A DNA stretch of 60,658 bases from the IMG/VR virus record IMGVR_UViG_3300037467_001807, positions 1-60,658 of that record; one strand, given 5' to 3'. Numbering within the stretch: the stretch's first letter is position 1; each line of letters opens with the position of its first letter. Source of the DNA: a virus (taxonomy: Duplodnaviria > Caudoviricetes). Under the pieces are notes generated by a model, which saw only the letters and a program-made list of their open reading frames with translations, ran no database searches and was not told the DNA's origin. The position numbers and the translations under genes are program-made. This document shows positions 1 through 60,658 of the stretch, piece after piece.

Positions 1-148
1 CCTGGAGCGGCGGCTCGCCGCTCAGCGCGGCGTCACCACCAGGATGAAGAACCGGGTCGCGAACGGCGTCTGTCCCTGCTGCAACCGGACCTTCGTCAAC
101 CTGCAGCGCCACATGGCGTCGAAACATGCCGGCTTCGTGGCTGAGGAA
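1..148. repeat. Terminal overlap copy 1 (identical to 60511-60658 except position 22); circular genome
   Basis: Direct comparison: 148 nt, single T/G mismatch (22 vs 60532); one ORF reads through the junction. Confidence 0.95.
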
Positions 149-177: not shown

Positions 178-1443
178 ATGAGCACCGTCGCTCGCCTCAC
201 CGACCACCTGGCCCAGCGCGCCGCCACCCTGGAGGCTGAGGCAGAGCATGCCGGTCAAGCGGCGAGCCTGGAGATCGGATCGATCCAGGGCGGAGGCGGC
301 GGCACGCTCTACCTCAACCTGGAACGGCTTCTCGCCGGACGCCTGCTTGTCCAGGGCAGCTCCGGCGCCGGCAAGAGCTCGGCGCTGCGCAAGATCATCG
401 AAGAGGCGTTCGAGTACGTCACCACCATGATCGTCGATCCCGACGGGGAGTTCGGGAACCTCGCCGAGCATATCGGGGCGACGACGATCCGCGGGGCGGA
501 GCTGGCCGCAGACGGACTGACGGCCGCGGCGACGCGGGCGAAGCATCACCGGATCAGTCTCCATCTCGACCTCACCGACCTGGCTCCGGACGAGCGGATC
601 GCGAAGGCCGCGGCGTTCTTCGCAGGCCTGGTCTCGGCGCCGCGCGAGGACTGGGCCAACACCGTCCTGATATGCATCGATGAAGCCCACCTCCTGGCTC
701 CGAACCTCGCTGCTTCTGCGCGGGATGCGGAGACACGCAGGCTCGGCGTCGCGGCCCTGACCGACCTCTGTTCCCGGGGTCGGAAGCGCGGGATCGCGCC
801 GGTCATCGCGACCCAGAAGCTGTCGAAGCTCGCCGGGTCCGTGACCTCCGAGCTCCACAACGTCCTCATCGGTCTCAGCGTCTTTGACCGTGACGTCGCC
901 AGGGCCGGCGAGTTCCTCGGGTTCAGCGGCGCCGACGCCGACCAGCTCCGTCACCTCAGCCCCGGCGAGTTCTACGCCTTCGGACCTGCCCTGAGCAGGC
1001 GTCCGATCCTTGGCAAGATCGGGGCTACAGTCACCCGCCACCTCGGAGCGACGCCAGACCTCGTCGGGCCGTCAGACACGACTTCCGAAGAAGCCTCCGA
1101 ACTGCTGGCCCTCGAAGCGCTCAGGGAGACGCCACAGCAGTCCAGGCGAGAACTGGCCCGAGGACCCGGTCGGCATCAGCTCGACGCCTTCCTCATGGAC
1201 CCTGCCGCTGCAGCTGCGGTTCGGATCGTGGAGGCGCTGCGCAAGATCGCGCCCAATGCGACGACGGCAGCCGACCTGGCCGGGCATCTCGGCGTCGAAG
1301 CTGCTGATATCGACGCCGGACTCGATCTCCTCGCGATCCTGGGCGCCGTGGATACGATGCCGAGAGGCGACGGCCGCATCGCCCGGCTCTCCGCACGGCT
1401 TCGACTCCGCGCCTCCGACTGCCCTGTGGTGGGGTTGGCCTGA
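178..1443 (+). CDS. HerA/FtsK-like ATPase (DUF87-type) with C-terminal winged-helix-like domain
   Basis: Walker A GSSGAGKS, VDPDGEF, Walker B ICIDEAH, GRKRGI, ATQ motifs; C-terminal TAADLAGHLGV HTH-like segment. Confidence 0.85.
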   Translation: MSTVARLTDHLAQRAATLEAEAEHAGQAASLEIGSIQGGGGGTLYLNLERLLAGRLLVQGSSGAGKSSALRKIIEEAFEYVTTMIVDPDGEFGNLAEHIGATTIRGAELAADGLTAAATRAKHHRISLHLDLTDLAPDERIAKAAAFFAGLVSAPREDWANTVLICIDEAHLLAPNLAASARDAETRRLGVAALTDLCSRGRKRGIAPVIATQKLSKLAGSVTSELHNVLIGLSVFDRDVARAGEFLGFSGADADQLRHLSPGEFYAFGPALSRRPILGKIGATVTRHLGATPDLVGPSDTTSEEASELLALEALRETPQQSRRELARGPGRHQLDAFLMDPAAAAAVRIVEALRKIAPNATTAADLAGHLGVEAADIDAGLDLLAILGAVDTMPRGDGRIARLSARLRLRASDCPVVGLA

Positions 1444-2654
1444 TGGAGCTCGGAGCCGACATCGTCGAGCTTGCGCCATACGTCCCGCCGGCTCCGGCTC
1501 CGCTGCGCGAGATCGCGTACCGGAGAGACGCCTGGTCGGCGGACCAGGTCGAGACGCTCCGACGCCTTTTCGAAGCCGATGAACCTATCGCGGAAATAGC
1601 CGCAGCCCTCGGCCGTCCCTTCCAGGGCGTCCGGCACAAGATCTACGAGCTGGCCCTGCGCCGAAATTCGCAGCGACCCTGGTCCGAGCTCGAGGACGCC
1701 GAGCTGGCCCAGCGCTACGGTTCCGAGACGGCCGCGACCATCGCCCAGGACCTCGGGCGAGGCGTCTGCGCTGTCTATTCGAGGGCCGCCCTGCTCGGTC
1801 TCTCTGAGCCTTCCGCGCTGCCATGGACGGAGTGGGAACTCGCCCAACTTAGGGCCGGGTTCAGCTCCGGCGTTCCTGTCGCTCAGATCGCGGTGCTGAT
1901 CGGTCGGCCGGTGTCCGGTGTCCGCGACAAGGCCCACAACTTGAGCCTGCGACACGCCACGACGCCTCCGGACTGGTCGGAGGATGAGGTCGGCCGGATG
2001 GTCGAGCTGGCCCACCAAGGCGTCCGCTATCTCCGGATCATCGAGATGCTGGTGTCTGAAGGCTTCCCGCGGCGGACGCTCAGCGCTCTCAAAGGCCAGC
2101 TCTGGAAGACCGGATACGGCCGCGGCTGGGGCAGGCCCTGGAACCCCGATGAAGACGAACTGCTCCGTCGCGCCTATCAGGACGGTGCAAGCCTGACGCC
2201 CCTCCTAGAGCGTCTTGGGCGCACCAAGACCTCGATGGCGCATCGCGCCAGCTTCCTCGGTATCCGAGGCACCCACGCCAGGCCGAACGGATTCCGGCAG
2301 GGTCCGGATTGGACCGAGGCGGAAGAAGCGCGGCTGCGCGAGACCTACGGCAAGGTCCGTCCGAAGGAGATTGCCGCCGAACTGGGACGGCCGATTCGGG
2401 CAATCTACAGCCGGGCGAACAGGCTCGGGCTCGTCGATCGCGCGGTCTTCTCCGAGCTGGACAAGCGTGCCGTCGCAATCGCCTGCCGCCACCAGCTCCG
2501 GCTCAAGGATGTCGCCGTCGCCCTCCGTCGCCCCTACGGCGGCCTCTCAAAGTATGCAGCCAAGCAGGGGCTCAGCTTTGCCGACACCCGGCACCAGCGT
2601 CCGGCGCGGCCGGACCTCACACTGGAACAGATCCTGGAACTGGAGCCCTCATGA
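1443..2654 (+). CDS. Protein with seven tandem Myb/GcrA-N-terminal-like HTH repeats
   Basis: Repeated W(S/T)xxE..L....G....IA..LGR....V..(R/K)A..LGL; TGATG coupling to the ATPase gene. Confidence 0.8.
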   Translation: MELGADIVELAPYVPPAPAPLREIAYRRDAWSADQVETLRRLFEADEPIAEIAAALGRPFQGVRHKIYELALRRNSQRPWSELEDAELAQRYGSETAATIAQDLGRGVCAVYSRAALLGLSEPSALPWTEWELAQLRAGFSSGVPVAQIAVLIGRPVSGVRDKAHNLSLRHATTPPDWSEDEVGRMVELAHQGVRYLRIIEMLVSEGFPRRTLSALKGQLWKTGYGRGWGRPWNPDEDELLRRAYQDGASLTPLLERLGRTKTSMAHRASFLGIRGTHARPNGFRQGPDWTEAEEARLRETYGKVRPKEIAAELGRPIRAIYSRANRLGLVDRAVFSELDKRAVAIACRHQLRLKDVAVALRRPYGGLSKYAAKQGLSFADTRHQRPARPDLTLEQILELEPS

Positions 2655-3081: not shown

Positions 3082-3306
3082 ATGGCGCTGGACCGGATCG
3101 AAGCGCGGGAGCGCGCCGAGCGCCTAGGGTGCCTCCCGATCGCGCCTGGCGGCGCGCGGCGCTGGCTGAGCCACGAGGAAGCGATGGCCGCCATCATCGG
3201 CTGCTCGACGACCGTGACCCTGCTTTCGTACGAGGAGGCCATCGGGGCCTACCTGTCACTGCGGGGCGTGGACGTCCCTGACTTTCCGCGGCCGCAGCAG
3301 CGATGA
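3082..3306 (+). CDS. Hypothetical protein
   Basis: SD-like GGAGGG, tight operon packing. Confidence 0.6.
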   Translation: MALDRIEARERAERLGCLPIAPGGARRWLSHEEAMAAIIGCSTTVTLLSYEEAIGAYLSLRGVDVPDFPRPQQR

Positions 3307-3632
3307 GCGAAGCCCGCGACCCTGCCCTCGGTCCCGTGACGGAGGCGCGCTTCCAGGCGGAGTTCGCCGAGCGCGCCATCGTGGGCATCGGCGTCGCGGC
3401 CCGGCTGCTCGGGCTTGACGAGAAGACCGTCGAAGCCCTGACTGCGGCGCGGATCCTGCGGTCGGTCCCGAAGGGCACGAAGCACCGCGGCTACACCGAG
3501 CGGGATCTGCGCGCCTACCTGATCGAAGGGCCTGACCTGGAATGCGCCCGCCCCGAACCGAAGCCGAGGGCCAAGCCCGCGAGCAACGTGCGGCACGTCA
3601 ACTTCTCGGAGCGCCGCGGCCGGCGCCGGTGA
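3303..3632 (+). CDS. xis: Putative excisionase (MerR-like HTH)
   Basis: VGIGVAARLLGLDEKTV...HRGYTERDLRAYL motif; directly upstream of the integrase. Confidence 0.65.
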   Translation: MSEARDPALGPVTEARFQAEFAERAIVGIGVAARLLGLDEKTVEALTAARILRSVPKGTKHRGYTERDLRAYLIEGPDLECARPEPKPRAKPASNVRHVNFSERRGRRR

Positions 3633-3636
3633 CCTC

Positions 3637-4818
3637 GTGAGCGTCTACAAGCCCCGCAACAGCCGCATCTGGCAGTTCGACTTCGTCGTCGCCGGCACGC
3701 GCTACCACGGCTCGACGGGCGTGATGACGAGGCGCGCGGCCGAGGGCGTAGAGCGGACCAAGCGCAACGAGGTCGCCAGCGGCCAGTTCGGCTCGGTAGC
3801 CCAGATGACCTTCGACGCCGCCGCGGGCCGCTACTGGGAGGAGAAGGGCAAGCACCGCGGCGATGCGGACGATGTGGAACGCCGGATCGAGGTGCTTCTG
3901 ATCCTGATCGGCAAGACCACCAAGCTCGCGGACATCCACCAGGCGAAGGTCGCAGAGGCCATCGAGAAGCGGCGCGGGATGACCTACACGAAGCGCCGGG
4001 GCGATCAGACCGACGCCATGAAGGCGAAGGCGCGCAAGCGGGACCGCGACAAGGGCCCCGTCAAGGAGTATGCGCCGACGGCCGCCACGGTGAACCGGGA
4101 CGTGATTGACACCCTGCGGCCGATCCTGCGCCGCGCCCGGACCCACTGGACGCCGAAGAACTCGCAGCACGGGCTCCCGGAGATCGATTGGCGCGAGCTG
4201 CGCCTGACCGAGCCGCGCGAGCTCGTGCGGACCTACAGCGCTCGGGAGCGCGGATCCTGGGTTGACGCCTGCGAGGCCGAGAACGTGCGCCTGGCCGTCG
4301 AGATGATCCTCACCTATGGCCTGCGGTTCGGGGAGTTGTTCTTCGAGCCCGGCGCCTTCATGCCGGAGACCGACGACGGCGCCGTCCTGAAGCTCCAGAA
4401 GGGCCGCAAGAAGGACGTCGTGCTCTACCTGCCGATCGTAGAGCGCCACGCGCGGCAGCTGGCCGCCCTCGCCGGCCGGGCGGTCGCCGCAGGCCTACCG
4501 CACCTCTGGTTCGACGAGAAGGCCGGCAAGCTGATCCCCCTCACCTACGGCCAGCTGGAGTACCGGGTGCGCAAGGCGGCGGACGCCGGCGGCGTTCAGG
4601 GCGAGCGGCGCATCCATGGCGCGCGCCACCATGCCGGCTCGGCCATGCTGCGCAAGACCAAGAACCTGAAGGCCGTCCAGCAGCTGCTCGGGCATGCCAC
4701 GATCGCCAGTTCGCAGCGCTATGCCCACGTCCTGATCGGTGACCTTCGGGCGGCCCTGGAAGACGACATTCCCCGGAATAGTCCCGAAGCGCCGACCCCG
4801 GAGAAGAAGAAAGCGTAG
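3637..4818 (+). CDS. int: Tyrosine integrase
   Basis: YGLRFGEL (R), HGARH (HxxR), LLGH, QRYAH (Y); N-terminal arm-binding-like WQFDF...RYHGSTG. Confidence 0.95.
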   Translation: MSVYKPRNSRIWQFDFVVAGTRYHGSTGVMTRRAAEGVERTKRNEVASGQFGSVAQMTFDAAAGRYWEEKGKHRGDADDVERRIEVLLILIGKTTKLADIHQAKVAEAIEKRRGMTYTKRRGDQTDAMKAKARKRDRDKGPVKEYAPTAATVNRDVIDTLRPILRRARTHWTPKNSQHGLPEIDWRELRLTEPRELVRTYSARERGSWVDACEAENVRLAVEMILTYGLRFGELFFEPGAFMPETDDGAVLKLQKGRKKDVVLYLPIVERHARQLAALAGRAVAAGLPHLWFDEKAGKLIPLTYGQLEYRVRKAADAGGVQGERRIHGARHHAGSAMLRKTKNLKAVQQLLGHATIASSQRYAHVLIGDLRAALEDDIPRNSPEAPTPEKKKA

Positions 4819-5029
4819 TGGCGGCGGGGACTTAGGTGCAGGCGCCCTAAGGTCTTGAAAACCGCCGTGCGTGCAAGCGCACCGTGGGTTCGAATCCCAC
4901 CCTGTCCGCCAGCGCGTTGATCCTGCACGGGTTTTACGTGCGGGGTCGACGCGGCCAGGATCGACGGCCGGAGAACGAACCGGAAAAACCCCCGAAGCAG
5001 CCCCCTGGAAGTCCCGAAATAGTCCCGAG
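4772..5029. repeat. Putative integrase arm-type sites flanking the attP core
   Basis: CCCGGAATAGTCCCGAA (4772-4788) and TCCCGAAATAGTCCCGAG (5012-5029), with a weaker copy near 4980-4996. Confidence 0.6.
4851..4911 (+). other. attP: attP core: 3' part of tRNA-Ser(TGA), from anticodon arm to CCA
   Basis: GGTCTTGAAAACCG anticodon loop, long variable arm, GGTTCGAATCC T-arm, CCA end; no 5' half; 33 nt after the int stop. Confidence 0.9.
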
Positions 5030-5063
5030 ATGATGTTCGGCGGCCGTTCGCGGAGGCGGCGGG

Positions 5064-5393
5064 ATGGACGACATCATGACCGATGCGCAGAAGCGCGAGC
5101 GCCATGCGGCCTGGCTGAAGAGCTTCGGCTTCAGCGACCAGGACTGGCGGCGGATGAAGGATCTGGCCGAGCGCGTGACCGGGAATGCGAACCCTCCGGC
5201 GCTGATCGACCTTTCAGTCCCCATCCGGGTCGCGGCATGCCCGCCCAAGGACGCGAGGCATTTCAATGGCCGGCTGTTGGGCGTCCACGCCGGCGCCGCC
5301 CTGCTCTACTGGCCAATGTCGGAGCGAGAGGTCGAGAGCTGGACCCGGAGGGTACGGCCGCTGGCGCCTCGAACGCAAAAGCCCCCGGCCTGA
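5064..5393 (+). CDS. Hypothetical protein downstream of attP
   Basis: GGAGG upstream of ATG; ends in a hairpin. Confidence 0.55.
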   Translation: MDDIMTDAQKRERHAAWLKSFGFSDQDWRRMKDLAERVTGNANPPALIDLSVPIRVAACPPKDARHFNGRLLGVHAGAALLYWPMSEREVESWTRRVRPLAPRTQKPPA

Positions 5394-36972: not shown

Positions 36973-37291
36973 GGCCCTCCTCGAGGGACAGGGCCCGAAC
37001 CGGCCAGGACAACCGGTCCGGGCTAAACCGCGTTCTGCGGTCCCTGAGAAGATCGGGCTCTGCCGGCGCTGACCCTCGCTAGCGTCATTGCCGAGGTGAT
37101 CGAGGTGCTGGCCGGCGATGGCGGGAGCGGCTGAGCCGCTGCATCGGTGAAGCCCAAAGCTTCGCATCTGAGGTCCGGCGTCTGGCCCGGTGCCTCGGGG
37201 ATCGGCCTGCCCGCTGGGCCTTGTTCAGGGAGCGCGTTCGCTCTCAGCCGGTCGTCCCGCCGTCAGAAACGGCATTGACAGCCACATAGAC

Positions 37292-37318
37292 TGATTCGCC
37301 CGTTAAGGGCGAGTGAAC
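37292..37318. promoter_or_regulatory. CtrA-box-like site plus adjacent GANTC site upstream of the late operon
   Basis: TTAA-GGGCGAG-TGAAC (37303-37318; one mismatch to TTAA-N7-TTAAC) and TGATTCG (37292-37298). Confidence 0.45.
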
Positions 37319-37950
37319 TACGGGGCCGGGCTCAGATAGGCGACCTCGACAACGGTTCCCCTGGCGCAGGGCCCTTCCATCATGAGGTGGGCCCGTTCGC
37401 CGCGCGGCGTCGCCAGGACCTTCCCGATGAAGCTGAACCAGGGTCCGGCCCTGACCTGGACCCGTTCCCCCTTCTTCGGCCGGTACGGTGTCCGGATATG
37501 ACGGGTGTAGTCGTAGTCGCCTCTCCGTTCGGCAACCTGGATCTCGAGGATCGCGATAACAGGGATCAACAGGGGCCGGTTGGCGCCGTCATCATCAGAG
37601 GTCCCGACGATGTCGTGGACACCCTCGGTGGCGCCAACGATGTGAAGGTCGTCTTCAGCGACAGTCACGAAGAGGTAGCCGGGGAAGAGCGGCCGGCTCA
37701 CCGGCTCCCGGTCCTGGAAGCGATCCAAGCGGGACCAGCGCGTCTCCATCGGCAGGAACACCGTGATCCCCTGCTCCTGGAGCGCAGCTGCCGCGGCCCG
37801 CTCCCGGCGTGTCGCCGTCCGCACCGCATACCAGCTCAGGATCCTGTTACCGCTCCGGTTCGGCTCCGGCTCACCGGGCCAGGGAAGGTCCGGACCGGGA
37901 TATCGGGCCAGGATCGAGGCTTCGTCAAAATCGGCAGGTCGGCAGTTCAT
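37318..37950 (-). CDS. NusG/RfaH-family antiterminator
   Basis: WYAVRT, FLPM, RPLFPGYLFV (NGN); KGERVQVRAGPW..FIGKV (KOW). Confidence 0.9.
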   Translation of the reverse strand: MNCRPADFDEASILARYPGPDLPWPGEPEPNRSGNRILSWYAVRTATRRERAAAAALQEQGITVFLPMETRWSRLDRFQDREPVSRPLFPGYLFVTVAEDDLHIVGATEGVHDIVGTSDDDGANRPLLIPVIAILEIQVAERRGDYDYTRHIRTPYRPKKGERVQVRAGPWFSFIGKVLATPRGERAHLMMEGPCARGTVVEVAYLSPAP

Positions 37951-44781: not shown

Positions 44782-47306
44782 GCCGCCTCCGCAGCGTTGC
44801 GGCCGGCGTCGAGCGCGTCGAACAGCGTGGGCTGGCGGACCTCGAACTCCGCCGCCATGAGGTAGCGGAGGCTGTCCCTGAAGTACTTGTCGTTCAGCTC
44901 GGAACCGTAGCCGCGGCGCCCCATCATCACGGCGCGCACCGGTACCGTGCCGAGCCCGGCGAAGGGATCGTAGACCAGGTCATCGCGCGCGGTGCAGAAC
45001 CGGATGACCCGGTCGACGATGTCGATCTGCAGGGGGCAGACGTGCTTCTCCCGACCGCCGAGGGACTGGTCGGCGTTCAGCGTCGCCATGCGCAGGATGT
45101 CGGTCCAGACGACGCCGGTCGGACTTTCGAGCGAAAGCGCGGCGAAGGTCTTGGGCAGGGCGCCGCGGGCCTGCAGGGCTTCGGCGAGTCTGACGTGCTC
45201 CTCGTGATCGTAGACCACCCGGCCGGACTGTTCCCGGAAGGCGCGCTGCAGCTGCTTCGGCGGCAGCGCGGCGAGTTCGTCAGCGGTCAGGTAGCGGTCG
45301 CCGGACGATCGCCAGTAGGCGGCGGCGTCGATCTGCCAGCGGGCGAGGCTGTACTCGTCGAGGCGCTTCGTCACCGGGTCGTCGGCGTAGCCCCGCGCCA
45401 GGTCGGACTGGGCCTTGCGGAAGAAGAGGACGTACTCCGGCGAGCCGGAGCCCATCTTCGTGGCGTCCTTCCGCATCTCGGAGTAGCCGAGCCGGTAGGT
45501 CTGGTTGTTCTCCCGCACCACGTCGGTCTCGACGGGGCGCACCGCCATCAGGTGGAAGCCATGCTTGCGGTAGTGGGCGATGCAGTTGGCGTGGAACGGC
45601 TCGACGGTGGGGAAGCCGAGGCCCGTCACGTTGCCGAACAGGATGCGGTCCTTGACGTGGACCGCCAGCACCCGGCCGGGCCGCAGGATCCTGAGCAGCT
45701 CCGGCGTCAGGAAGTCCATCTGCCGGAAGAAGGCGGCGTTGTCGTCGTTGTGGCCGAAGTCGTTGTAGCTCTCGCAGTACTCGTACTGCGTCCCGAACGG
45801 CACCGAGGTCAGGATCAGGCCCATGTGGTCGCTGGGGAGGCGCCGGGCCTCGTCCACGCAGTCGTTTAGCGCCGCGGTCCACCGCTCCCCGCTCTCGACC
45901 CTGCGCTCGACGCCGATGCTGCGCCGCATCGCCTCGGTCGGGCTGATCCGGTTCAGGCCGTACTTGCGGATGATCTCGCTCATCCGGTCGCGGAGCTCGA
46001 TGTCGCGGGCCCACTTCGCCTCGAAGGAGCGGCGCAGCTCGCGCTCCGTCTCGGCGTAGATCATGTCGATCACGACCTTCTCGGTCTGGCCGAAGCGCTG
46101 GATGCGGTGCCAGGCCTGTGCGATGTCGCGGAACTTGTGGCCGATGCCGGCGAAGATGGCGCGGTGGCAATGCGCCTGCAGGTTCCCGCCGGCGCCGAGC
46201 ATGACGGGCTTGGCGGAGAGGTCGGTGACGGTCCCCTCCTTGAACCCGCGCACCACCTCCTCGCGCTCGTCCAGGTCCTGCGTCCCGTAGACCGACTTCG
46301 CCTGCGGGAGCGCCTGTTCGATGGCCCGGCGCTCGTCCTCTAGGTCGTGCCAGAGGATGAAGTGGTTTTCCGGCTCGGCCTCGCGCAGCTCCTTCAACTT
46401 GGCGATCCGGGCCGGGAGCGTGTCGCGCTTCTCCCGCGCCGCGTCCTGCACGCCGACGGCCGCGTCGCGGATCAGCTTCATCTGCCCCCGGCTGTCGGCG
46501 CCGGCGTCCGCGAGGTCGGCCTGCACCTCGTGCCAGCGCACCTCCATCTCCGGCAGCTCATAGCCCTCGTCGCTGAAGCCGAGGTCGGACGGCCGCTGCA
46601 AGAAGACGGCCCAGGTCGAGACCCAGAGCCAGAACTCCTCCTCCTTGTGCGGGTAGAGGGTGAGGTCATTGGCCTTCTCGGAGTTGCGCTGGAAGAACCG
46701 CGTCAGCGCCTGGCCAGTGTCCATCACGCCGAGGAAGCCGGCGTAGTGGATCAGCTCCTTGTACCGGTTAGGCGAGGGCGTGGCCGTCGCGACGAACTTG
46801 AACCTGACCGGCTCGAAGGCGGGCAGGAACTCCTGGAACGTCTTGGAGCCGTAGCTCCGCAGCACGTCCGCCTCGTCCAGGCTGGCGGCGGTGAAGAGCT
46901 TGGGGTCGATCTTGCCGTCGCGGATCGTCTCGTAATTGACGAGGTTCACCGCGTGGTCGCGGATCTCGGCCTCGGACCGGATGAAGGGCAGCTCCATGCC
47001 GAGCTGCTCGGCGTCGTTGAAGAACTCCTGGCGGACGCCCAGCGGAGCGACCTGCAGCGCCGGTCCCCCTTCCCGCTTCACGATCTGGCGCAGCGTCTCC
47101 AACTGCATCGACGTCTTGTGCAGGCCGTAGGCGGTGAAGTAGGCCCGCGCGCCGCCGGCGAGCCCCCACTGCACGATGGCGCGGCAGTGCGGCTTCAGCC
47201 ACGGGTGCAGCGCATCCTGCTCGACGTGGAAGCCCGTCGCCGGCGCGGCGATCGCCTTCGCCTCGAGGAAGGCCTGATAGCCGTCCTTCTTTTCCGGACG
47301 GCTCAT
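44778..47306 (-). CDS. SF2 helicase-like domain fused to N4/N6 DNA methyltransferase
   Basis: LDEAD, ATATPSPN, QAWHRIQRFGQ; TSVPF and VYDPFAGLGT...GSELN. Confidence 0.85.
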   Translation of the reverse strand: MSRPEKKDGYQAFLEAKAIAAPATGFHVEQDALHPWLKPHCRAIVQWGLAGGARAYFTAYGLHKTSMQLETLRQIVKREGGPALQVAPLGVRQEFFNDAEQLGMELPFIRSEAEIRDHAVNLVNYETIRDGKIDPKLFTAASLDEADVLRSYGSKTFQEFLPAFEPVRFKFVATATPSPNRYKELIHYAGFLGVMDTGQALTRFFQRNSEKANDLTLYPHKEEEFWLWVSTWAVFLQRPSDLGFSDEGYELPEMEVRWHEVQADLADAGADSRGQMKLIRDAAVGVQDAAREKRDTLPARIAKLKELREAEPENHFILWHDLEDERRAIEQALPQAKSVYGTQDLDEREEVVRGFKEGTVTDLSAKPVMLGAGGNLQAHCHRAIFAGIGHKFRDIAQAWHRIQRFGQTEKVVIDMIYAETERELRRSFEAKWARDIELRDRMSEIIRKYGLNRISPTEAMRRSIGVERRVESGERWTAALNDCVDEARRLPSDHMGLILTSVPFGTQYEYCESYNDFGHNDDNAAFFRQMDFLTPELLRILRPGRVLAVHVKDRILFGNVTGLGFPTVEPFHANCIAHYRKHGFHLMAVRPVETDVVRENNQTYRLGYSEMRKDATKMGSGSPEYVLFFRKAQSDLARGYADDPVTKRLDEYSLARWQIDAAAYWRSSGDRYLTADELAALPPKQLQRAFREQSGRVVYDHEEHVRLAEALQARGALPKTFAALSLESPTGVVWTDILRMATLNADQSLGGREKHVCPLQIDIVDRVIRFCTARDDLVYDPFAGLGTVPVRAVMMGRRGYGSELNDKYFRDSLRYLMAAEFEVRQPTLFDALDAGRNAAEAA

Positions 47307-54715: not shown

Positions 54716-54937
54716 TCATGCCGCGGCTTCCTGGCTCCGCGGATCGGCGCCCCTGGCCAGCTCGTCGAGCGACGCGACATCGAGATCGACGAGCGCCTGC
54801 CAGTATTCTCCAGGGATGCTGTTGCGGTCGGCCCAGCGCTGCGGTGTCGACTGGTGGACCTCGATGCCGGCGGCGGCGAGATCCCGCGCGAGCTTCGCAG
54901 CCCCGTGGTCCTGAACGATCTTCTGGTGCGTCCGCAT
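54716..54937 (-). CDS. Cro-like repressor
   Basis: GAAKLARDL...STPQRW..RNSIP.EYW; divergent from CI. Confidence 0.8.
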   Translation of the reverse strand: MRTHQKIVQDHGAAKLARDLAAAGIEVHQSTPQRWADRNSIPGEYWQALVDLDVASLDELARGADPRSQEAAA

Positions 54938-54949
54938 GAAGGCGAAGAT

Positions 54950-54986
54950 ACGACATTATGTGCTAACGGCAAGCACAATTTGTCGT
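54950..54986. promoter_or_regulatory. Right operators (two 15-bp sites) overlapping the cro promoter
   Basis: ACGACATTATGTGCT and AGCACAATTTGTCGT; minus-strand TTGCCG-N16-TATCTT 7 nt before the cro ATG. Confidence 0.8.
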
Positions 54987-55021
54987 TAGCCCGGCAGGAC
55001 GTCGATTGGCAGCTTCGTCGC

Positions 55022-55612
55022 ATGTCGATCGGGACACGGATCAAGAAGGCGCGCGAGGCTGCAGGCTGGTCACAGGGGCGCATCGCCAAGGCCGTCGGCA
55101 AGGAACAGACGACCGTCAGCTCCTGGGAGCGCGGCCGCACCGAACCAACCAGAGAAGATGTGATGCGGATCGCGGATGCGCTCTGCATCCCGGCTGCGAC
55201 ATTGGAGCTCGACGAGCTACGACCGGAACTGACGCGTCCGAAGGTACGACTCGTCGGGTACGTCGGAGCAGGCGCAGAAGCGCACTTTGCCTCGGCGGAC
55301 GACCCCGCCGAAGAAGTCGACGCACCCGAGGGAAGTACCGTGAACACCGTAGCCGCAGAAATCCGCGGCGCCAGCTTAGGCAAGGCTTTCGATCGATGGC
55401 TCGTCTTCTATGACGATGTCCGCTCGCCGGTCACTCCAGACCTCCACAACCAGCTCTGCGTCGTCGGAACCGGCGACCAGGTCCTGGTGAAGATCCTGCG
55501 ACCCGCTGGCGCACCGGATCGCTTCCACCTGATCTCCAACGCCGACGAAGAACCCCTCTTCGACCGAGAGGTCTTGTGGGCCGCTAAGGTCAAGAACCTG
55601 AAGCCGAGATAG
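55022..55612 (+). CDS. cI: CI-like repressor (XRE HTH + S24-like domain)
   Basis: RIKKAREAAGWSQ..IA..VG....TVSSWERG..EP; VGYVGAG, RGAS, VK. Confidence 0.9.
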   Translation: MSIGTRIKKAREAAGWSQGRIAKAVGKEQTTVSSWERGRTEPTREDVMRIADALCIPAATLELDELRPELTRPKVRLVGYVGAGAEAHFASADDPAEEVDAPEGSTVNTVAAEIRGASLGKAFDRWLVFYDDVRSPVTPDLHNQLCVVGTGDQVLVKILRPAGAPDRFHLISNADEEPLFDREVLWAAKVKNLKPR

Positions 55613-56993: not shown

Positions 56994-58376
56994 GTGACCA
57001 AGCTCGCGCTGACGCCGGAACGGCGCCGCACCATCGAAGAAGCCCGTGACGAGTGGCTGCGGATCGGTCTCAGCACCGACCCGGCGGACTTCGGGGCCGC
57101 CGAAGCTGCGATCACGACGCTCTACGAGAGCATCGGGAAGAAGCGGCCGTACTTCGTAAAGCTCAGCTCCCCGCTCGCGGCCGAACTTTACATTAACCTC
57201 TACTGCGCTACCTGGCCGGCCGCCGCCGGGCCCGGCGGCCAAAAATCAAAGAGCCACACCGGGGGCCAGCTCAGGGACCAGCTCTGGGACCAGCTCGGGG
57301 ACCAGCTCTGGGACCAGCTCAGGGACCAGCTCGGGGACCAGCTCTGGGGCCAGCTCAGGGACCAGCTCGGGGACCAGCTCTGGGGCCAGCTCGGGGACCA
57401 GCTCTGGGACCAGCTCTGGGACCAGCTCAGGGGCCAGCTCTGGGACCAGCTCAGGGGCCAGCTCAGGGACCAGCTCAGGGACCAGCTCGGGGACCAGCTC
57501 TGGGACCAGCTCTGGGACCAGCTCAGGGACCAGCTCGGGGACCAGCTCTGGGACCAGCTCGGGGGCCAGCTCGGGGACCAGCTCGGGGACCAGCTCTGGG
57601 GCCAGCTCTGGGACCAGCTCAGGGACCAGCTCGGGGACCAGCTCAGGGGCCAGCTCTGGGAATCGCGGCTGCGGTTCACCTGGACCTGGTTCTACGGCGC
57701 CTGGGATTACCTCTGGCAGTGGTACGACGGCGGCCGCCGCGTCGGCATGGTGCTGCCGGAGAAACTCAACCAGCAGCTCGACGCCCATCTCACGGTCTGC
57801 CGCAGCATCGGCCTCTGGTACCCGTTCGACGACTTCGTCATCCTCACCGACCGCCCGGACACGATCCGGCGAGACACCCGGAACCGGCTGCACTGCGATG
57901 ACGGGCCGGCGCTCCGTTATCGCGACGGCTACAGCCTCTACTTCCTGAACGGCCTGCCGGTGACCCGGCAGATCGTGGAAGCTCCGGAGACGCTGACGGC
58001 GCACCAGGTGCGCGACGAGACGAACGCCGAGATCCGGCGGCACATGCTGGATCGCTATGCCGGTCTCCGCGGCTCCGCGGCGGCCGGGAAGTGGCTCGCC
58101 GACATCGGAGCGAAGCCGATCAGCTCCGTGGACATCACGGCGAAGATGCAGCCCTCTGGGCTCGCGATCTGGAAGCTCCAGAACGGCGACGCGCCGGTCC
58201 TGTGCAAGCTCTATCGCGCCGACATGCCAGACGACGAGCCGCTGGTGCTGCTCTTCGTGGTCTGCACCTCGACGGCCAAGGAGGTCTTCCTACGGGTCCC
58301 GCCTGACTTCACCGACGCCGCGCGCGCCCGGGACTGGACCTTCGGCGAGAGCCTCGCCGAAGCCGTGGAGACCTGA
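56994..58376 (+). CDS. DUF6745-like protein with 33 QL(W/R/G)(D/G) repeats
   Basis: RLHCDDGPALRYRDGY..Y..NG, NAEIRR, V.CTST...LRVPP...A.DWTFG. Confidence 0.85.
   Translation: MTKLALTPERRRTIEEARDEWLRIGLSTDPADFGAAEAAITTLYESIGKKRPYFVKLSSPLAAELYINLYCATWPAAAGPGGQKSKSHTGGQLRDQLWDQLGDQLWDQLRDQLGDQLWGQLRDQLGDQLWGQLGDQLWDQLWDQLRGQLWDQLRGQLRDQLRDQLGDQLWDQLWDQLRDQLGDQLWDQLGGQLGDQLGDQLWGQLWDQLRDQLGDQLRGQLWESRLRFTWTWFYGAWDYLWQWYDGGRRVGMVLPEKLNQQLDAHLTVCRSIGLWYPFDDFVILTDRPDTIRRDTRNRLHCDDGPALRYRDGYSLYFLNGLPVTRQIVEAPETLTAHQVRDETNAEIRRHMLDRYAGLRGSAAAGKWLADIGAKPISSVDITAKMQPSGLAIWKLQNGDAPVLCKLYRADMPDDEPLVLLFVVCTSTAKEVFLRVPPDFTDAARARDWTFGESLAEAVET
57267..57662 (+). repeat. 33 x 12-bp tandem repeat CAGCTC(T/A/G)GGG(A/G)C
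   Basis: Counted directly, 396 bp; last unit ends GAA. Confidence 0.95.
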
Positions 58377-58971: not shown

Positions 58972-59180
58972 CGGTCCTGACCCGCCACCAGTACGAGCTG
59001 CTCGACCGCATCGTCGATGCCGGGCCACGCGGCCTGCAGGTCTCCGACCTCGCCATGGGCGATGTCATCGGCCTCGCCATCGACGGGCTCGTCAGCATCG
59101 ACAGCGCCAGCCGGCGCGCCACGGCCACGGCCGAGGGCCTCGGCTTCTACCTCACCTCGAACCTCAGGAGCTTGGCATGA
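58968..59180 (+). CDS. Small wHTH-like protein
   Basis: LTRHQYELL...GLV...ATAEG. Confidence 0.55.
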   Translation: MTVLTRHQYELLDRIVDAGPRGLQVSDLAMGDVIGLAIDGLVSIDSASRRATATAEGLGFYLTSNLRSLA

Positions 59181-60013
59181 ACGCCCACGTCAAAACCCCG
59201 GAAGCCGCCGAAGACCAGGTGCCAGCGCTGATCGAGGTCACGGAACAGACCGCAGCCGATGTTCTCAAGGACGAAAAGAAGTTCGAGGCCTTCTACGGCC
59301 AGGTCGAAGCGGCGACGAAGACGCTGGTCGCCGACATCTCCAGCAAGGAGGGCCGCGAGGCCATCGCCTCGATGGCCTACAAGGTCTCGAAGACCAAGAC
59401 CGCGATCGACAAGATCCGGCTCCGGATCACCGAGGACTGGCGGAAGCAGACCGAGGAGGTCAACAAGGCCGGGAAGCGGATCAGCGCCCGGCTCGACGCC
59501 CTGCGCGACGAGGTCCGGAAGCCGCTGACGGAATGGGAGGCCACGGAAAAGGCCCGACAGGATGCCGTGGACGGCATCATGGCGACGTTCCGCGATGTGG
59601 CGCCCAAGTTCTCCGACACCGCCGAGGCCGTGGCGACCCGTCTCGCCGCGGTGAAGGCCACGGTCATCTCGCAAGAGACCTTCCGAGACCAGTACCCCGA
59701 GGCGATGCACCTGCAGGGTCAGGCCATCCAGGCGCTGACGGAGGCGCATGCCGCGCTGGTGCGCCAGGAAGCGGACCAGCGTGAGCTGGCGGAACTGCGG
59801 GCCAGCCGCGGCCAGGCCGAGACGACGGTCCAGGCTCCCCTCGCGGTCCCCACGGGTTCGGATGCTCCGGAGCCGGTCCAGGACCGCGGCGTCGCGACTG
59901 CCGAGACCCTGGCTGACCTGCAGCAGCGGGCTGGGCTGACACTGCAGCAGGCCAAGGCCGTGGTCATGGCGATCACCGCCGGCACGATCCGTCACGTCCG
60001 CATCGAGATCTGA
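59177..60013 (+). CDS. Phage coiled-coil protein
   Basis: DISSKEGREAIASMAYKVSKTKT...LRDEVRKPLTEWE; C-terminal G.IRHVRI. Confidence 0.75.
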   Translation: MNAHVKTPEAAEDQVPALIEVTEQTAADVLKDEKKFEAFYGQVEAATKTLVADISSKEGREAIASMAYKVSKTKTAIDKIRLRITEDWRKQTEEVNKAGKRISARLDALRDEVRKPLTEWEATEKARQDAVDGIMATFRDVAPKFSDTAEAVATRLAAVKATVISQETFRDQYPEAMHLQGQAIQALTEAHAALVRQEADQRELAELRASRGQAETTVQAPLAVPTGSDAPEPVQDRGVATAETLADLQQRAGLTLQQAKAVVMAITAGTIRHVRIEI

Positions 60014-60023
60014 GCCCCCAGGC

Positions 60024-60260
60024 ATGGACTATCACAGCGCCGATACCCGCCTGCCAGGCGAGGCTCCCGAGGTCACGCGCTGGACCGCGGCGCGCAAGGA
60101 CGAGCTGCTGCGTCGGATCCGGCGCGGCGAGCTCTCCGAACCCGAGGCCTGCGCCCGCTGGGGCTTCACGCCTGAGGAGATTGCGGCCTGGAGGCAGCGG
60201 TCGGCGCGGTTCGGGTTCCAGGGCCTCAAGGCGACAACGCTGCAGGTGAAACGGCCGTGA
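60024..60260 (+). CDS. sciP: SciP (DUF1153) CtrA-inhibitor homologue
   Basis: RW...RK.E.....R.G.LS..EAC.R...T.EE..AW.....R.G..GL..T..Q pattern matches recalled Caulobacter SciP. Confidence 0.8.
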   Translation: MDYHSADTRLPGEAPEVTRWTAARKDELLRRIRRGELSEPEACARWGFTPEEIAAWRQRSARFGFQGLKATTLQVKRP

Positions 60261-60658
60261 CCAACTTCGAAGAGCAGGAGTGCATCAGCTGCTTTGTCCG
60301 CTTCGGAGTCCCGAAAGGCTTCACCGCGGCGCGGCGGCAGGACAAGCGCTCCTTCTACTGCCCCAACGGGCACAGCATGTCCTACACGCGTAGCACCGCC
60401 GACGAGCTCCGCGACCAGCTCGCTGCGAAGGAGCGAGAAGCCCAGAACGCAAAGGCCGAAGCCGAGCGGGAGCGGCGCTGGCGCATCGAAGCCCGCGAGG
60501 ACCAGCGCGCCCTGGAGCGGCGGCTCGCCGCGCAGCGCGGCGTCACCACCAGGATGAAGAACCGGGTCGCGAACGGCGTCTGTCCCTGCTGCAACCGGAC
60601 CTTCGTCAACCTGCAGCGCCACATGGCGTCGAAACATGCCGGCTTCGTGGCTGAGGAA
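60257..60658 (+). CDS. Zinc-finger/coiled-coil protein continuing across the circular junction to 181
   Basis: CISC...YCPNGH, coiled coil, CPCCNRTF..LQRHM..KH; GTGA and ATGA couplings. Confidence 0.75.
   Translation, partial: MTNFEEQECISCFVRFGVPKGFTAARRQDKRSFYCPNGHSMSYTRSTADELRDQLAAKEREAQNAKAEAERERRWRIEAREDQRALERRLAAQRGVTTRMKNRVANGVCPCCNRTFVNLQRHMASKHAGFVAEE
60511..60658. repeat. Terminal overlap copy 2
   Basis: Matches 1-148 with one mismatch. Confidence 0.95.

Follow-up and report, generated by a model that had tools for sequence, protein, structure and literature searches.

SciP and phage-borne cell-cycle regulators

SciP binds CtrA and blocks the recruitment of RNA polymerase, and its T24I and T65A variants are hypomorphs (PMC4083442). 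Regulators of the alphaproteobacterial cell cycle are also carried by phages: a GcrA homologue is described in phiCbK (PMC9437464, PMC7987155) and CcrM analogues in Sinorhizobium phages (PMC9437464). The gene analyzed here resembles these cases in concept, an alphaproteobacterial phage carrying its own version of a cell-cycle transcription factor of the host. The phiCbK GcrA and CcrM analogues, however, belong to other protein families and are recognizable full-length copies, whereas the present gene represents a divergent and truncated branch of its family. No report of a phage-encoded SciP homologue was found in the full-text literature open to searching, subscription papers and supplements lying outside that search, and a search of the same kind with the family name DUF1153 gave no match.

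The phage and its plus-strand block

The window, that is, the whole stretch of 60,658 nucleotides that was analyzed, is an entire IMG/VR virus record with a CheckV completeness of 100, and the element is a temperate siphovirus whose 60.7-kb genome is complete. The record that contains the DUF1153 gene also has genes for a terminase, a portal, a tape measure and an integrase, which agrees with the claim of the earlier note that this gene is phage-borne. The record is classed as 'linear, no end repeats' despite a 148-nt direct terminal repeat, and a 7,711-nt contig from an independent soil run extends approximately 4.7 kb beyond the right end of the window. Because of the terminal repeat and the overrunning contig, the record is considered to be either circularly closed or terminally redundant, with a plus-strand block that continues across its ends.

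The minus strand encodes a Sak4-like protein, a helicase, a helicase/methylase and a primase, followed by the large terminase, portal, protease, tape measure and tail genes. The plus-strand block begins at approximately 55.0 kb, crosses the window ends and reaches approximately 5.4 kb (Table 1). It opens with an XRE-type repressor-like gene, several small genes, the gene of a DUF6745 repeat protein, a gene of phrog_1376 and the DUF1153 gene, in this order. These are followed by the zinc-finger gene of phrog_33336, the genes of the HerA-like ATPase and of the multi-HTH protein with GcrA-N-like domains, an excisionase candidate of the HTH_17 type and, last, the integrase. The designation 'early operon' that had been given to the surroundings of the gene is not confirmed by this layout, in which the gene shares its strand with the XRE-type repressor-like gene and the integrase and lies opposite the replication and structural genes. 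By position, the block corresponds to the repressor/integrase arm of the phage, and it could be transcribed in the lysogen or early after induction. The scan revealed no plus-strand terminator-like site in the block, and the promoter and terminator scans were uninformative. The central part of the DUF6745 protein (56994-58376, plus strand; 113.6 bits) contains many short D-Q-L-W/R/G repeats in succession.

Table 1. Coordinates of the DUF1153 gene and of the features that surround it in the window.
Feature	Position	Strand	Remarks
Phage DUF1153 gene	60024..60260	+	78-aa short DUF1153 (SciP-like) helix-turn-helix protein; ATG start
DUF1153-matched core	60063..60248	+	profile positions 24-85 of 87
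Upstream gene	59177..60013	+	278 aa, phrog_1376 (unknown function); ORF list, PHROGs match
Downstream zinc-finger-like protein gene	60257..60658	+	phrog_33336; crosses the terminal repeat to approximately position 181
HerA/DUF87-like ATPase	178..1443	+	next gene of the block; matches the PADLOC HerA and mad8 models
Multi-HTH protein	1443..2654	+	403 aa, phrog_323; several helix-turn-helix units
Small HTH_17-like protein	3303..3632	+	excisionase candidate; directly 5' of the integrase; below the Pfam cut-off
Tyrosine integrase	3637..4818	+	phrog_1; ends the same-strand block
XRE-type (HTH_3/HTH_31) repressor-like gene	54854..55612	+	heads the plus-strand block; true start probably later than 54854
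Small divergent gene	54716..54937	-	first of the minus-strand (replication/lytic) arm; Cro-like position; no family match
Direct terminal repeat	1..148 = 60511..60658	.	1 mismatch

For the large terminase subunit (TerL), relatives with 58-63% identity are encoded in genomes of Haematobacter, Aurantimonas, Sphingopyxis and Caulobacteraceae, and the nearest cultured relatives of the portal protein, at 39% identity, belong to Brevundimonas phages. The nearest relatives of both proteins reside in alphaproteobacterial prophages and phages, which identifies the host, at the level of the class, as an alphaproteobacterium. Near-identical copies of the phage DNA are present in contigs of soil and rhizosphere metagenomes, which differ from it too little for selection to be tested. 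Two parts of the helicase/methylase gene (approximately 45262-45788 and 46525-46945) share about 75% DNA identity with genes of Arthrobacter/Mycobacterium phages (50 records), and the rest of the 20.7-kb stretch from 40000 to 60658 matched no phage record at the DNA level.

A divergent and shortened member of the DUF1153 family

The 78-aa ORF described in the earlier note is present at its reported position, and the peptide quoted there corresponds to residues 19-74 of the protein. The GC content by codon position (0.68/0.58/0.86) resembles that of the flanking genes, and the antisense frame displays the mirror pattern; the ORF is a genuine coding gene. A spacer of 10 nt separates the stop codon of the phrog_1376 gene from the ATG, and the stop codon at the other end shares 4 nt (GTGA) with the GTG start of the zinc-finger gene. 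The protein has no PHROGs family and no PADLOC match.

The phage protein passes the Pfam model PF06627 (DUF1153) with 55.8 bits and an E-value of 5.3e-15 at a cut-off of 23.5, and the same ORF scores 54.6 bits in a six-frame search of the phage genome with this profile. The DUF1153 core pattern recognized in the earlier note is thereby recovered by a profile search. The match involves residues 14-75 and enters the profile at position 24, whereas canonical copies cover the profile from 2-87 to 8-87 with 120-145 bits. The lack of the host N-terminal extension, likewise proposed in the earlier note, is thus apparent in the alignment, in which canonical copies start from position 2.

A different picture emerges with the NCBIfam equivalog model of SciP, NF051866, on which the phage protein reaches 54.4 bits and remains below the cut-off of 100. 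All five canonical SciPs from different genomes that served as controls pass this model with 122.8-143.7 bits. An 82-aa form of SciP devoid of the N-terminal motif still scores 110.8 bits, and the low score of the phage protein is therefore attributed to a divergent core and not to truncation alone. A survey of 201 alphaproteobacterial genomes with PF06627 yielded matches in 90 of them, mostly one per genome and most at 90-145 bits; the phage protein belongs to the low tail of that survey, which comprises nine rows at 46-75 bits.

The comparison at the residue level uses Caulobacter numbering, in which a 93-aa Caulobacteraceae SciP carries T24, R35, R40 and T65 at the C. crescentus numbers. 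A set of 23 canonical SciPs, with a mean identity of 60%, displays 30 invariant columns, half of which (15/30) are retained in the phage protein. In the core from R35 to R93, which contains 25 of these columns, 13 are identical in the phage protein and 6 more show conservative changes. The retained positions are the equivalents of R35, W36, R40, K41, T65, E68, W72, G80, G83, L84, T87, Q90 and R93, with R19, R24 and T49 standing for R35, R40 and T65, respectively. Substitutions at canonical invariants include V37T, R39A, A42D, G50R, Q73R and Y92K. The T24 region is missing, and of the N-terminal SciP segment (G17, P18, G20, P22, T24, L28 and P29) the phage protein lacks G17 and G20 and retains only the L-P pair.

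The phage protein thus resembles SciP in its Pfam family, its three-helix core, its C-terminal tail and end, and its alphaproteobacterial setting, but differs in the absence of the N-terminal V-I-G-P-x-G-x-P-L-T segment and in the change of 12 of the 25 invariant core columns. Judged by its sequence, the gene is a divergent, shortened member of the SciP family (DUF1153) and not an orthologue of SciP. The designation as a SciP homologue does not hold in the orthologue sense, given 54.4 bits against a cut-off of 100, 13 of 25 invariant columns and a position in a separate clade (see below). Irrespective of any contact with CtrA, a DUF1153 match alone does not show SciP function and is not enough to name a gene SciP, because the Pfam model also accepts the OrfA protein of an IS3 element and, marginally, a match in Escherichia coli. 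In this control genome, which has no CtrA, the profile exceeds its cut-off marginally when the E-value limit is relaxed to 0.01.

A short DUF1153 clade apart from canonical SciP

A search of 1.84 billion protein representatives returned 1,104 proteins at an E-value of 1e-3 or better, of which only 5 remain at a limit of 1e-10; the best matches other than the protein itself are approximately 50% identical to it. Apart from the query, a word-indexed search found a single protein, 69% identical and located on a 1.2-kb contig. In a tree of 81 rows and 84 columns, a branch with support values of 97/93 (bootstrap/SH-aLRT) parts 40 rows from 32 canonical SciPs. These 40 rows consist of 38 members of a short clade, the chromosomal locus L043 and the phage protein. 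The phylogeny against host SciP suggested in the earlier note consequently places the phage protein outside the canonical clade, in an alignment of only 84 columns that leaves the deeper branching order unresolved. A quick tree of 187 rows agrees in outline with the smaller one.

The mean column identity of the short clade is 26%, compared to 60% in the 23 canonical SciPs, and its invariant or nearly invariant positions are R19, W20, R24, K25, E52, W56, G64, G67 and L68. None of the 39 members reaches an E-value of 1e-27 on any NCBIfam model. Of the 20 short-clade clusters that were looked up, all of which are metagenomic, 15 consist of one sequence and the largest contains 6. Regardless of any contact with CtrA, these sequences define a large and fast-evolving short branch of the DUF1153 family, devoid of the conserved N-terminal segment and intermediate between canonical SciP and the OrfA domains of IS3 transposases.

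No relatives were found in viral contigs searched with the phage protein, A2, P0004, P0016 and P0003, or in metagenome contigs searched with A2. Metagenome contigs searched with P0009 yielded 8 loci that carry full-length or short-N-terminal SciP-type ORFs (RW-V type), and the R-W-T arm of the short clade occurs in none of these 8 loci. Two weak partial matches to P0044 and P0009 (L092 and L093) were considered as relatives and discarded, since they are unsupported by the A3 profile and PF06627 was detected in 0 of 5 records.

The genomic setting sets the phage gene apart as well. Six canonical sciP loci were inspected, four of which lie beside flagellar genes: L007 and L034 are located between flgE and fliF, the neighborhood of L013 contains flgD and fliF as well as a gene resembling fliK, and L016 is flanked by flgD on the only side inspected. 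As for the remaining two, one adjoins a response regulator of the OmpR/CtrA type and the other has a GNAT gene on the single flank inspected. By contrast, the phage gene is part of a phage operon and occupies neither a flgE/flgD-fliF position nor one adjacent to ctrA. The very divergent locus L043 (7959-8264, genome G045) is the sole DUF1153 gene of its genome, which is the only one of its order in the comparison set; it scores 56 bits on the SciP model and lies between flgE and fliF. A low score and a placement with the short clade are therefore compatible with a SciP-like role, because L043 combines them with the canonical sciP position.

Relation to the OrfA proteins of IS3 elements

A gene annotated as DUF1153 on a Vibrio maritimus plasmid is the OrfA of an IS3 element and passes two Pfam models, DUF1153 with 38.4 bits and HTH_Tnp_1 with 35.7 bits. 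The phage protein is 48% identical to this OrfA over the 42 residues from 15 to 56, and the similarity ends at W56. The shared part comprises the R-W-T-A-x-R-K arm together with the first two and a half helices, but OrfA runs on into a coiled coil and its gene is followed by a transposase gene, whereas the phage protein ends at residue 78. The IS3 OrfA retains 13 of the 25 canonical SciP core invariants, a count equal to that of the phage protein, and also carries the equivalents of R35, W36, R40 and K41, although its source bacterium has no CtrA. The basic arm residues are hence regarded as a feature of the family and not as the mark of a CtrA interface, because the IS3 OrfA possesses them too. 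In a tree, OrfA attaches among the short-clade rows with weak support (73-77), and the short-clade member P0012 likewise passes HTH_Tnp_1. Overall, the phage protein is no nearer to true SciP than to the DNA-binding domains of transposases.

These similarities raise the question of whether the phage gene is a remnant, or an accessory HTH gene, of an IS3-type OrfA insertion. The identity over 42 residues and weak matches to the NCBIfam IS481 and Pfam HTH_Tnp_1 models point in this direction, but the score on HTH_Tnp_1 (PF01527), 15.7 bits, is below the cut-off of 24.1. Furthermore, the gene is followed by the zinc-finger gene of phrog_33336 and not by a transposase (OrfB) gene, the protein ends in a SciP-type tail in place of the coiled coil of OrfA, and GC3 and gene spacing are the same as in the surrounding operon. 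We consider such an origin highly improbable.

Predicted structure and proposed DNA binding

The AlphaFold2 model of the phage protein has a mean pLDDT of 77.7 and contains helices at residues 22-34, 39-46, 50-63 and 66-69. The best structural match of the model is 2jrt_A, with a Z-score of 4.5 and a root mean square deviation of 2.5 over 54 residues at 32% identity. This entry, from Rhodobacter sphaeroides (RHOS4_12090), and 2oa4 (SiR5) are NMR structures of DUF1153 proteins, which match the phage protein in sequence with E-values of 1.1e-7 and 1.2e-4, respectively. Both proteins (95-101 aa) have about 28 extra N-terminal residues with respect to the phage protein, and no function has been deposited for them. 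Many DNA-binding HTH domains are found among the structural matches of the model (Z 3.3-4.2), including those of LsrR, TnsB, KorB, resolvase, IstA and small terminase (Z 3.8-4.2). Foldseek retrieved no match of the model in the PDB at an E-value of 1e-3 or better. For a predicted model of this kind, the low Z-scores indicate a common HTH fold only.

The reading that we favor, tentatively and with somewhat less than even confidence, is that the phage protein binds DNA sequence-specifically, as an HTH regulator or adaptor of the operon on the repressor/integrase side, and does so without a need for CtrA. Contacts with DNA would be made by the basic N-terminal arm (R19, W20, R24 and K25) and by helix 3 (residues 50-63), as in HTH domains of the OrfA type and of the Tc3/CENP-B type. 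The targets would be phage or host operators, and the protein would work in concert with those genes of the operon that are translationally coupled. Variable DNA targets are a better match for the fast divergence of the short clade than one highly conserved partner would be. The divergence from SciP, the similarity to the transposase HTH and the tight gene spacing likewise speak for this reading. No operator, repeat or binding site was identified for the phage protein. Against a plain regulator, the SciP-like similarity extends to the C-terminus (41% over residues 19-77), where the protein carries the SciP-type tail G-x-x-G-L-K/R-x-T-x-x-Q-x-x-R, whereas the similarity to OrfA stops at W56. 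The HTH_Tnp_1 score below its cut-off and the lack of a downstream transposase gene count against it as well. The location of L043 at flgE-fliF, together with its equally low score, may also weigh against this reading.

The close spacing of the genes allows for a further alternative, in which the DUF1153 protein is the DNA-recognition subunit of a multi-protein module formed with its coupled neighbors, namely the phrog_1376 protein, the zinc-finger protein, the HerA-like ATPase and the multi-HTH protein. Such a module would serve in defence, anti-defence, partition or DNA processing, and the DUF1153 protein would direct it to DNA. The 10-nt spacing and the 4-nt overlaps among the member genes are in line with this arrangement, as are the matches of the ATPase to PADLOC models (Table 1) and the presence of HTH domains of the transposase OrfA type and small-terminase type among the structural neighbors. 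Nevertheless, MT835519 and MT836346, two metagenomic phage records without annotation, encode the pair formed by the ATPase and the multi-HTH protein at 52-67% identity, and a search of both whole records with the PF06627 profile found no DUF1153 in either. The relatives of the zinc-finger-like protein occur in actinobacterial phages, none of which was matched in the phage-wide tblastn search with the DUF1153 protein, and PADLOC gave no match for that protein itself. The block appears to be mosaic, because the neighbors occur without DUF1153 and the zinc-finger relatives lie in actinobacterial phages, and a dedicated module of this composition is quite unlikely.

SciP-family genes on mobile elements and a possible action on CtrA

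A tblastn search of 50,697 phage records gave a single match to the phage protein, gene 97 of Erythrobacter phage XM05, at 40.7% identity. This gene (L089, 4998-5192) is part of a run of small genes in a 152-kb phage and encodes a 64-aa 'hypothetical protein'. Like the protein described here, it lacks the N-terminal segment of SciP, but it is nearer to canonical SciP, since it retains 17 of the 25 invariant core columns and scores 63.6 bits with the SciP model. Full-length genes of the canonical SciP type, annotated only as DUF1153, are present on the Novosphingobium plasmids pP6W2 and pLA4 (L095 and L096, both at 4923-5222). One of these plasmids is mobilizable and the other conjugative, and the pLA4 copy is located beside ssb, DUF736 and toxin-antitoxin genes. 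In the 199-aa protein P0034, a CtrA-like winged-helix DNA-binding domain (Trans_reg_C, 64 bits) is fused to a DUF1153 domain of the short type (63.5 bits); the former shares 51% identity with the response regulator that adjoins sciP in Haematobacter. The fusion, a singleton, comes from a contig of 915 nt and may be an artefact of assembly or gene calling.

The main alternative to the DNA-binding regulator, put forward in the earlier note and possible though less likely in our view, is a SciP-like modulator of CtrA, whose conserved DUF1153 core would engage the CtrA of the host or promoters occupied by CtrA. The outcome would be a block of flagellar, pilus and division genes or, given the absent N-terminal segment, the displacement of host SciP by competition. 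A modulator encoded on the repressor/integrase strand could be made in the lysogen, leading to receptor shut-off and superinfection exclusion, as well as after induction. Several lines of evidence are consistent with this activity. The whole SciP core is kept to the C-terminus with 41% identity to a Caulobacteraceae SciP, and the equivalents of R35, W36, R40, K41 and T65 are all present. Gora and colleagues are said to have found in 2010 that R35 and R40 of SciP are needed for CtrA binding. The host is an alphaproteobacterium, and SciP-family genes are carried by other mobile elements of that class, i.e., phage XM05 and the two Novosphingobium plasmids. P0034 joins a CtrA-like DNA-binding domain to a DUF1153 domain of the short type. 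A protein with GcrA-N-like domains is encoded in the same plus-strand block, two genes downstream; it scores 33 bits on the Pfam GcrA N-terminal domain at a cut-off of 26.9, with no single stretch that passes. The only characterized DUF1153 protein is SciP, a CtrA binder (PMC4083442), and the phiCbK GcrA and the CcrM analogues provide precedents for cell-cycle regulators on phages.

The same comparisons also contain evidence against a CtrA modulator. The protein fails the SciP equivalog cut-off through its divergent core and not through truncation alone, it belongs to a clade apart from canonical SciP, and V37, R39, A42, G50, Q73 and Y92, invariant in the 23 canonical SciPs, are altered. The invariant N-terminal region with G17, G20 and T24 is absent, and T24I is one of the hypomorphs described in PMC4083442. 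The equivalents of R35, W36, R40 and K41 are present in the IS3 OrfA of a bacterium that has no CtrA, and P0034, as a singleton on a 915-nt contig, may be an artefact. A predicted complex of the phage protein (39-row alignment) with the Swiss-Prot entry CTRA_CAUVC obtained a score of 0.00 in both runs, in which the controls did not fold, and counts neither in favor of binding nor against it.

A broader proposal, which we regard as unlikely, holds that SciP-family genes serve alphaproteobacterial mobile elements, including this phage, XM05 and the Novosphingobium plasmids, as a weapon directed at the CtrA regulon, the phage copy being a minimal, N-terminally stripped SciP that docks on CtrA. 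If so, a minimal SciP would be made from the repressor/integrase-side operon, and it would silence flagellum and pilus genes (superinfection exclusion), stall division or displace host SciP; the fusion of a CtrA domain to DUF1153 in P0034 would then be a Rosetta-stone trace of the contact with CtrA. If the phage protein does contact CtrA, the SciP-CtrA switch would for the first time be the target of a phage factor, and the protein would offer a natural minimal SciP for mapping the parts that bind CtrA and those that block RNA polymerase.

The phage DNA displays no enrichment of CtrA boxes or SciP motifs, which also argues against an action on CtrA. The CtrA box TTAA-N7-TTAA has no exact site in the whole phage, and the SciP motif TGTCGCG is found at 15 sites compared to 22.2 expected, i.e., not in excess. 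One CtrA box with a single mismatch is present at 37303-37317, and 16 of 100 shuffles do as well. This site is located in the gap upstream of a minus-strand gene that starts at 37167, and adjoins a NusG-like gene (37318-37950, minus strand; 60.7 bits) that is encoded upstream of the packaging genes.
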